From: Octopus vulgaris
Taxonomy: Eukaryota
Length of the DNA stretch: 64,000 nt
NCBI GenBank assembly: GCA_951406725.2
Contig: OX597817.1
Span: forward strand, 125,922,001 to 125,986,000
Reading direction: 5' to 3'
Each line of letters opens with the position of its first letter. The first letter of the stretch is position 1. A program made the position numbers and the translations under genes. The notes beneath the pieces were generated by a model. It was not told the DNA's origin. It was given only the letters and a program-made list of their open reading frames with translations, and ran no database searches. Below are positions 10,414 through 11,064 of this stretch, one piece after another.

Positions 10414-10992
10414 AAATTGAGGGAGATAAATTAATATTAATTTTAATATCAATTTAAAACCAGTAGTCCAGCATTCAAAAAATCTGAGGAGTCAGAGAAA
10501 ATTCAAATATATGTGTATATTGGCAGGGCTGGCCTGCTAGGTAGCCGGCTAGAATGCTAGAAGAAGATCATCAACGATCAAACTACAAGGGAAATTCTCT
10601 AGAGGAAGAATTCAGCGAGCACCAGAACCAACTTTGGCGGGCAGGACATATGAAAAATTAAATAAATAACAGACTTAAATGCATACCTTGGTTTCGGTCT
10701 TAACAAAAGAATTACTTGCATAATTCAAGTGTCCGTGACTTCATCAGTACATTCGGTCCTCGAGATGCAAACCGCAAGACTAACCCCAGCTCTCTGTGTC
10801 AAGACAGACACGTGCTTAGTCTTACTGATTACATCGGGAATAACATTTCAAATGTCTTGGTTCTGGCGCGCTGAGAGACTCCTGAAGCGAAGGGCTGCAG
10901 TGAATAATTCACTGCGGGTAGTGCTTACAACTAGGGAACGTATTTATTTAAATATTTAAAAATTGAGGGAGATAAATTAATATTAATTTTAA
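10414..10992 (-). mobile_element. Non-coding ~546 bp element with 33 bp terminal direct repeat and internal hammerhead ribozyme, inserted in (TA)n (retrozyme-like / solo PLE pLTR)
   Basis: AAATTGAGGGAGATAAATTAATATTAATTTTAA at 10414-10446 and 10960-10992; flanked by (TA)n tracts; hammerhead core inside. Confidence 0.7.
10678..10753 (-). ncRNA. Minimal type I hammerhead ribozyme (candidate)
   Basis: AAUGUA-CUGAUGA-aGUC...GACc-GAAA-CCAAGG-UA-UGCAUU. Stem I is 6 bp with one GU, stem III is tiny, cleavage triplet GUA. Confidence 0.75.
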
Positions 10993-11064
10993 GATTGCCA
11001 ATATACACATATATATATATATATATATATATATATATATATATATATATATATATATATATAT

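Follow-up and report, generated by a model that had tools for sequence, protein, structure and literature searches.

For the hammerhead ribozymes of Penelope-like elements, RNA circles and reverse transcription (RT) of more than one unit have been proposed (PMC4209133). Retrozyme RNA circles were shown in coral, mussel and axolotl (PMC7229834), and a 2026 preprint links retrozymes to the pseudo-LTRs (pLTRs) and describes dispersed monomers (10.64898/2026.07.22.740005). All three sources still treat the route from retrozyme circles to Penelope-driven insertion as a hypothesis (PMC4209133, PMC7229834, 10.64898/2026.07.22.740005). For Penelope-like elements, partial tandems, adjacent inverted 5'-truncated copies, extensions of 30-40 bp at either end and (TA)n targets have been described (10.1101/2021.04.23.441226), and palindromes are found at their inverted junctions (PMC3846280). 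In vitro, internal initiation at two sites and nicking of AT-rich DNA were observed; the anole element was inserted without need for ribozyme cleavage, and the study reports no reads ending at the cut site (PMC11167929). In Xenopus, eight of nine dimers did not cleave (10.64898/2026.07.22.740005). Dispensable cleavage in the anole system and the uncleaved Xenopus dimers speak against an easy circle story.

In octopus, 31 Penelope families were reported, recently active ones among them, and the main text of that paper is silent on hammerheads (PMC13282606). Naiads have been reported in Octopus, too, and are described as devoid of hammerheads (10.1101/2021.04.23.441226); they are therefore a poor parent for the unit discussed below. 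In a search of the literature, with repeat libraries outside its scope, no report on cephalopod hammerhead retroelements was found, and supplements could list related families. Here, a stretch of 64 kb of Octopus vulgaris DNA (in the following: the window) is analysed that carries two neighbouring elements with hammerhead motifs, designated A and B. Element A is probably a single young copy of a hammerhead retroelement that is non-autonomous, belongs to the animal non-LTR retrozyme type and owes its mobilisation in trans to a Penelope-like element.

Anatomy of element A

The original prediction stated that the first 33 bp of the element recur exactly 546 bp further on. Self-comparison of the window confirmed this: 10414-10446 is identical to 10960-10992, a run of 33 nt at an offset of 546. 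With one mismatch the direct repeat stretches to 36 nt (10960-10995, corresponding to 10414-10449) and stops where an inverted piece starts. On the minus strand, which is the RNA strand, 10414-10446 constitutes the 3'-terminal copy of the redundancy and the putative RT start, and 10960-10995 its 5' copy, i.e. a second lap of 33-36 nt that contains a 16-nt palindrome (10974-10989). The unit itself (10414-10959, minus strand) comprises 546 nt with 39% GC. A short inverted copy was correctly predicted to cap the right end: 10996-11014, in plus-strand sense, is the exact reverse complement of 10507-10525 over 19 nt and abuts the 33-36-nt repeat. By chance, the best inverted match reached 13 nt when the unit was shuffled 5000 times, and 10 nt when 622 genuine tiles of 546 nt from the window were compared. 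The source of the cap (10507-10525, minus strand) consists of a small hairpin with a CACA loop followed by (TA)-like sequence and is a candidate second priming site.

Both ends of element A touch (TA)n. The left one, the 3' end in RNA sense, abuts a (TA)50 tract (10315-10414), the probable target. On the right, the final 6 nt of the inverted cap are also (TA)n and run into a (TA)28 tract (11010-11065) that separates elements A and B. Another (TA)-like tract (10941-10959, minus strand) follows the 33-nt segment in the RNA and might be a pairing site for a nicked (TA)n target. The termini of the element carry a direct repeat, and the inverted piece pairs with the interior and not with the opposite end; terminal inverted repeats of the 546-nt unit were not found. 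Further copies of the unit are absent from the 64-kb window. With 1.06 units and a single hammerhead, the locus falls short of the tandem of two or more units, each with a hammerhead, that marks an active retrozyme. Since it has only one hammerhead, the copy itself would be unable to release a monomer, and since it ends away from the cleavage site, it is permuted relative to a cut monomer.

The hammerhead of element A

One hammerhead had been predicted between the repeats, with a GUA cut at about 10684, and a type I motif was indeed found on the minus strand (10754-10677). C3 is located at 10747, and the predicted cleavage occurs after A17 at 10684, i.e. between 10684 and 10683. Helix I has 7 bp and is followed by CUGAUGA with one additional A; a helix II region of 45 nt, GAAA, a minimal helix III (CCAAGG) and GUA complete the motif. 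Hence, all parts of a hammerhead core, CUGANGA, GAAA, an NUH triplet and a helix I closing the ends, are present. A strict descriptor of this motif was matched by none of 20000 shuffles and a loose one by nine of 20000. With a descriptor requiring 5-bp stems, it is the sole match in the 64-kb window. In descriptor scans of element A, the opposite strand yielded no hammerhead, so that only one polarity is found.

The metazoan consensus for Penelope hammerheads reads CUGANGAH-G...C-GAAAN-palindrome-NUH (PMC4209133, text and supplement). In agreement with it, the extra A in element A is followed by G, and a C precedes GAAA; pairing of this G with C needs an adjacent bulged C. By its sequence, the ribozyme fits this consensus; in the rows of that supplement, however, helix II is far shorter. 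Helix II is interrupted, with 3 bp, internal loops and a 7-bp hairpin, and its foot is an A-C mismatch or a bulge. Unpaired feet of helix II have precedent, since one row of the published ribozyme alignment has an extra A before GAAA (PMC4209133, supplement) and the axolotl retrozyme has a mismatch at the helix II base (PMC7229834). Apart from two A-A pairs at its centre, helix III is self-complementary, and its self-duplex is calculated at -6.7 kcal/mol.

The hammerhead fold is not the predicted ground state. In the circle, it lies 4.2 kcal/mol above the minimum, with pairing probabilities of P 0.10-0.15 for helix I and P 0.02 for the helix II base. Free folding of a 101-nt piece around the ribozyme did not yield a hammerhead (z -0.46). 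Rfam returned 0 matches at gathering score in the 64 kb; at E up to 10, the region 10300-11500 gave 29 matches, none of them a ribozyme and most of them microRNA models on TA tracts. A pattern scan of bacterial and archaeal genomes produced a single match, L001, which was discarded as chance: the likeness is confined to the pattern, and helix I is absent. On the minus strand at 10686-10650, the GUA triplet of the cleavage site overlaps a sequence, AG/GUAUG, that resembles a splice donor, and 34 nt past this site a U-rich tract ends just before a Met frame of 16 codons. The donor-like site and the short frame may be what is left of a pLTR intron and of the beginning of its ORF, or chance.

Folding and coding capacity of the unit

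Folding of the 546-nt circle had been suggested as a check, and the circle proved more stable than shuffled sequences (z -4.6 for the minus, i.e. RNA strand, z -2.4 for the plus strand; 0 of 40 shuffles each). For the linear RNA strand, z was -4.9, and 0 of 100 shuffles were as stable. The better folding of the RNA strand compared to the other strand counts in favour of a retroelement. In a smaller circular rerun, the unit reached z -3.8, and one of 23 real control tiles was lower. This tile, located at 23300-23845, had a circular-fold z of -4.3. The predicted fold stability of the RNA strand is thus a good signal but not unique among real tiles. The circular fold is branched, with 59% of the bases paired, and not a rod.

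The unit had also been described as rich in self-complementarity, and this holds in part. In the predicted fold, a domain at 10612-10874 (minus strand) that encloses the hammerhead is closed by a long-range helix of 5+13 bp (10612-10631 with 10857-10874, P about 0.96). An 8-bp hairpin with a 3-nt loop forms at 10897-10915 (P 0.94). Both had been anticipated and are part of the fold, but their run lengths are also reached by shuffles, the 13-bp run alone by 79 of 300 and the 8 bp by nine of 300. A third pairing, AGGAGTC with GACTCCT, is absent among the helices with P>0.5.

No protein-coding capacity was seen in the frames of the unit, linear or circular; the longest stop-free frame of the RNA strand has 41 aa, circular reading included. 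The two Met frames of this strand whose start lies at the hammerhead or beyond it are 10 and 16 codons long. The six longest internal frames had no match in Pfam, a 97-aa antisense frame gave 0 protein matches, and relatives of the unit were found neither in bacterial and archaeal genome contigs nor among proteins. A search for tRNAs was negative, and a bacterial promoter scan, a method not apt here, remained empty. The unit lacks an ORF with telomerase-like RT and GIY-YIG domains as expected for an autonomous Penelope-like element. Among 17 frames searched against Pfam (six from the unit, 11 from elsewhere in the window), no Penelope RT or GIY-YIG was found; the mobilising partner is therefore assumed. 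The only matches above or near the cut-off in these 17 frames were a mariner transposase and a LINE endonuclease/RT.

Element B and the surroundings

Element B (11066-11528) is composed of two head-to-head arms, a minus arm from 11326 to 11066 and a plus arm from 11332 to 11528, that are identical at 74 of 78 bases and can fold back over 21 bp at their junction (11306-11352). It has (TA)n at both ends; its far end borders a (TA)13 tract (11529-11554). A relaxed descriptor detected a hammerhead on the minus strand (11082-11168, C3 at 11164) that occurs in one of 20000 shuffles. Its helix I has 4 bp, an extra A accompanies CUGAAGA and another precedes GAAA, the helix II region measures 60 nt, and helix III is palindromic (CAUAUG); cleavage is predicted after 11086. 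In the entire 64 kb, the relaxed descriptor found only the two hammerheads, compared to a mean of 0.05 in 60 shuffles. An interpretation of 11066-11428 as a MITE was dropped once the hammerhead had been found there. The plus arm shows an apparent internal deletion at an ATG microhomology.

Element B is unrelated in sequence to element A. Its plus arm extends about 101 nt past the end of the minus arm (11066/11427 vs 11528), and the outward-facing 3' ends of both elements differ by about 93-102 nt, i.e. by more than the 30-40-nt Penelope tail. Furthermore, helix II is long in both ribozymes (45 and 60 nt), and its foot is flanked on either side by one unpaired base. With only two cases, these shared traits do not make a rule. 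According to a review, Penelope-like elements insert beside each other (PMC6765202), and the presence of another hammerhead element with inverted arms within one TA complex counts in favour of the retroelement reading of element A.

The window is AT-rich and laden with microsatellites. Two tandem 184-bp copies with 88% identity are located at 9249-9594; they resemble an RTE-type short repeat common in octopus genomes. A decayed sequence on the minus strand (9660-10230) resembles, by eye, a Tc1/mariner transposase, and two frames there had no Pfam match. A mariner transposase fragment (Pfam Transposase_1) is present at 18338-18937, and a broken LINE on the minus strand (45425-47848) has endonuclease and RT domains spread across several frames. 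The LINE RT gave 273 matches; among the 120 listed, the only two with an organism name are from a sawfish and Xenopus, at about 40% identity, which speaks for an animal source. An AT-rich satellite of about 3 kb (60638-63896, GC 17-18%) displays nested periods of 11-12, 22 and 33-34 bp.

A model for the origin of element A

The best reading of element A is a reverse-transcribed RNA of one unit plus 33-36 nt. The overlap, the inverted fragment and the hammerhead each exceed chance expectation and count for a retroelement. Its layout, a partial tandem with an adjacent inverted 5'-truncated copy in a (TA)50/(TA)28 microsatellite target, corresponds by analogy to the published signature of Penelope-like elements. 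The original prediction had not connected the cap and the 33-nt overlap with this layout and had not noticed element B. For more than one unit to be copied, the template must have been a circle or a tandem transcript, or the enzyme must have jumped to a second RNA. The original prediction of RT of a circular or tandem RNA therefore stands insofar as more than one unit of RNA appears to have been copied; a covalent circle, tandem read-through and a template jump look alike in one copy. Circles and more-than-unit copying are a plausible but not a new idea, which has been in print since 2014.

We infer the following course of events. A tandem parent locus would be transcribed on the minus strand, and its hammerheads, probably paired as dimers, would release monomers of 546 nt, which may be circularised by a host ligase. 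A (TA)n tract would then be nicked by a Penelope GIY-YIG/RT protein. The first cDNA would start at 10414, an internal position of the RNA that lies 270 nt downstream of the cleavage site, complete one round and add 33-36 nt of a second. Priming at a second internal site (10507-10513) would fall to the other nicked strand, from which 13-19 nt would be copied, and the two cDNAs would be united in head-to-head orientation. If the template is a circle or a tandem, the second piece lies only 57 nt beyond the stop of the first cDNA. Such a spacing is the geometry of twin priming, as in work on L1.

The sequences at which element A ends hint at target-paired priming at (TA)-like tracts, which is a lead and not a result. 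In 20-nt windows, 12 of 546 positions score at least 14/20 against (TA)n; they group at two places, the direct 3' end and the interior of the inverted piece. Position 10513 is ordinary at this window size (106 of 546). With windows of 8 nt, the inverted end ranks within the top 2 of 546, the direct end no higher than within the top 32. The outcome depends on the window length, of which six were tested for element A. The short end of element B ranks among the top 1-10 of 344 at 20 nt and the top 38-74 of 350 at 14 nt. The TA tracts could have grown later from TA-like ends, and the anole enzyme initiated without target homology (PMC11167929). It is doubtful, albeit conceivable, that a distinct class of hammerhead retroelements exists, characterized by a helix II of 45-60 nt with an unpaired base on each side of the foot, a true 546-nt circle and target-paired twin priming, in which each nicked (TA)n strand would pair with one of two (TA)-like tracts of the RNA about 100 nt apart. 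If it did, insertion junctions across the genome would directly reveal both the circular template and the priming rule.

Alternative explanations

Element A could be the solo pLTR of an autonomous Penelope-like element. RT would have begun in the upstream pLTR of a linear transcript and reached its 5' end, and the 33-36 nt would stem from a jump to a second RNA or represent an endonuclease-related 'tail', so that no circle would be involved. The overlap lies squarely within the range of such tails: solo pLTRs and a 31-bp tail have been described (PMC3846280), as have 30-40-bp extensions at either end (10.1101/2021.04.23.441226). In addition, minimal hammerheads are mostly single motifs tied to truncated elements (PMC4209133), and retrozymes and pLTRs are closely related (10.64898/2026.07.22.740005). 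However, the end of a canonical pLTR lies within the first codons of an ORF (PMC11167929, PMC3846280), whereas the two short Met frames of the unit close early, and none of the frames searched matched Pfam. Furthermore, 546 nt exceed the 181-218 bp of rotifer pLTRs (PMC3846280), and the sequence past the overlap continues into the (TA)-like tract, which suits priming on a longer template. A solo pLTR is therefore unlikely. It is highly improbable that element A is an endogenised part of an infectious viroid-like circular RNA that a host retroelement captured a single time. An overlap compatible with a circle, one hammerhead and a stable fold would agree with such an origin; against it speak a hammerhead on one strand only, the branched fold that is no rod, the lack of an ORF, the Penelope-type features of the ribozyme and an unrelated neighbour of Penelope type, element B.

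The 33 bp might also have been acquired from the target. A host target-site duplication (TSD) is unlikely, since an AU-rich hairpin of 13 bp (10427-10456, minus strand, P 0.98) straddles the edge of the 33-nt repeat and pairs it with the bases that follow in the insert itself, and the DNA to the right of the second repeat copy, the inverted cap, is also derived from the insert. The 13-bp hairpin was equalled by four of 9026 control 20-mers and by none of 1072 AT-rich ones. Both observations agree with the original prediction, which had doubted a TSD of the (TA) tract. A variant, in which the 33 bp are a long TSD caused by insertion into a same-family relic of about 50 bp (the 33 bp plus the inverted piece) within the TA tract, is very unlikely. 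It could draw on a Penelope endonuclease that recognises its own tail sequence (PMC11167929), on insertions of Penelope elements into or beside earlier copies (PMC6765202) and on retrozyme TSDs said to exceed 4 bp (PMC7229834), but it needs two events and a relic of only about 50 bp, and the TSDs of rotifer elements measure 8-10 bp (PMC3846280). Even with such a relic, the 33 bp would be element sequence, so that a TSD of host DNA is disfavoured either way. An accident at the DNA level, i.e. a DNA transposon relic, a local duplication or an assembly error between two microsatellites, can be dismissed almost entirely. TA tracts are error-prone in assembly, and the window contains 30 tracts of at least 8 units. 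Such an accident would leave the complete hammerhead unexplained, which under the strict descriptor appeared in no shuffle, and the terminal repeat is direct rather than inverted, with the inverted cap placed exactly at its edge. A DNA transposon, one of the outcomes that would have spoken against the prediction, looks unlikely in view of the missing terminal inverted repeats and the presence of a hammerhead.

Comparison with known systems

Plant LTR retrozymes share with element A a hammerhead and a non-autonomous nature, and in plants a circular RNA intermediate is known. They carry type III hammerheads in two long LTRs, PBS and PPT and a 4-bp TSD (10.64898/2026.07.22.740005, PMC7761336), whereas element A has one type I ribozyme and a 33-nt repeat. 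Naiad/Chlamys elements and non-autonomous derivatives like MRC1 are similar in their tandem/inverted layout and their preference for (TA)n (10.1101/2021.04.23.441226).

Penelope-like elements with a C-terminal endonuclease (Penelope/Poseidon, Neptune and Nematis) resemble element A in many respects: a partial tandem, an inverted 5'-truncated copy, an overlap of 30-40 nt, a palindrome near the inverted junction, an AT-rich target, an RT start downstream of the hammerhead and the ribozyme consensus (PMC4209133, PMC3846280, PMC11167929). In contrast to them, element A has no ORF for RT or GIY-YIG, and, its overlap of 33-36 nt notwithstanding, its two 3' ends (10414 vs 10507-10513) are 93-99 nt apart instead of 30-40. 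It ends at (TA)-like tracts, whereas initiation by the anole enzyme was free of homology (PMC11167929), and its 45-nt helix II region compares to helix II loops of 3-9 nt in the rows of the PMC4209133 supplement.

Animal non-LTR retrozymes (PMC7229834, 10.64898/2026.07.22.740005) have, like element A, a non-coding unit of a few hundred nt with a GC content below 50%, a type I hammerhead with a weak helix III and a stable predicted fold. For them, copying of more than one unit by a Penelope RT was proposed, and dispersed monomers are described. The 546 nt lie within the 51-972-bp range of units in the 2026 survey (10.64898/2026.07.22.740005) but exceed the 170-400-nt circles of animal retrozymes seen on northern blots. 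Element A, known from DNA alone, also differs by its 1.06 units and one hammerhead instead of a tandem of two or more, by the Penelope-type extra nucleotide, by the 45-nt helix II region and by the inverted cap. By analogy, it resembles at most a solo derivative of a retrozyme that would have been inserted by Penelope machinery. As hammerhead retroelements number thousands in other animals (10.64898/2026.07.22.740005, PMC7229834), a single copy matters little. Should the family prove large, circles as templates and the choice of (TA)n targets could be tested on its junctions. Compared with the known systems, element A is a clean specimen, in which a more-than-unit overlap and a Penelope-type inverted cap come together on a non-coding hammerhead unit.
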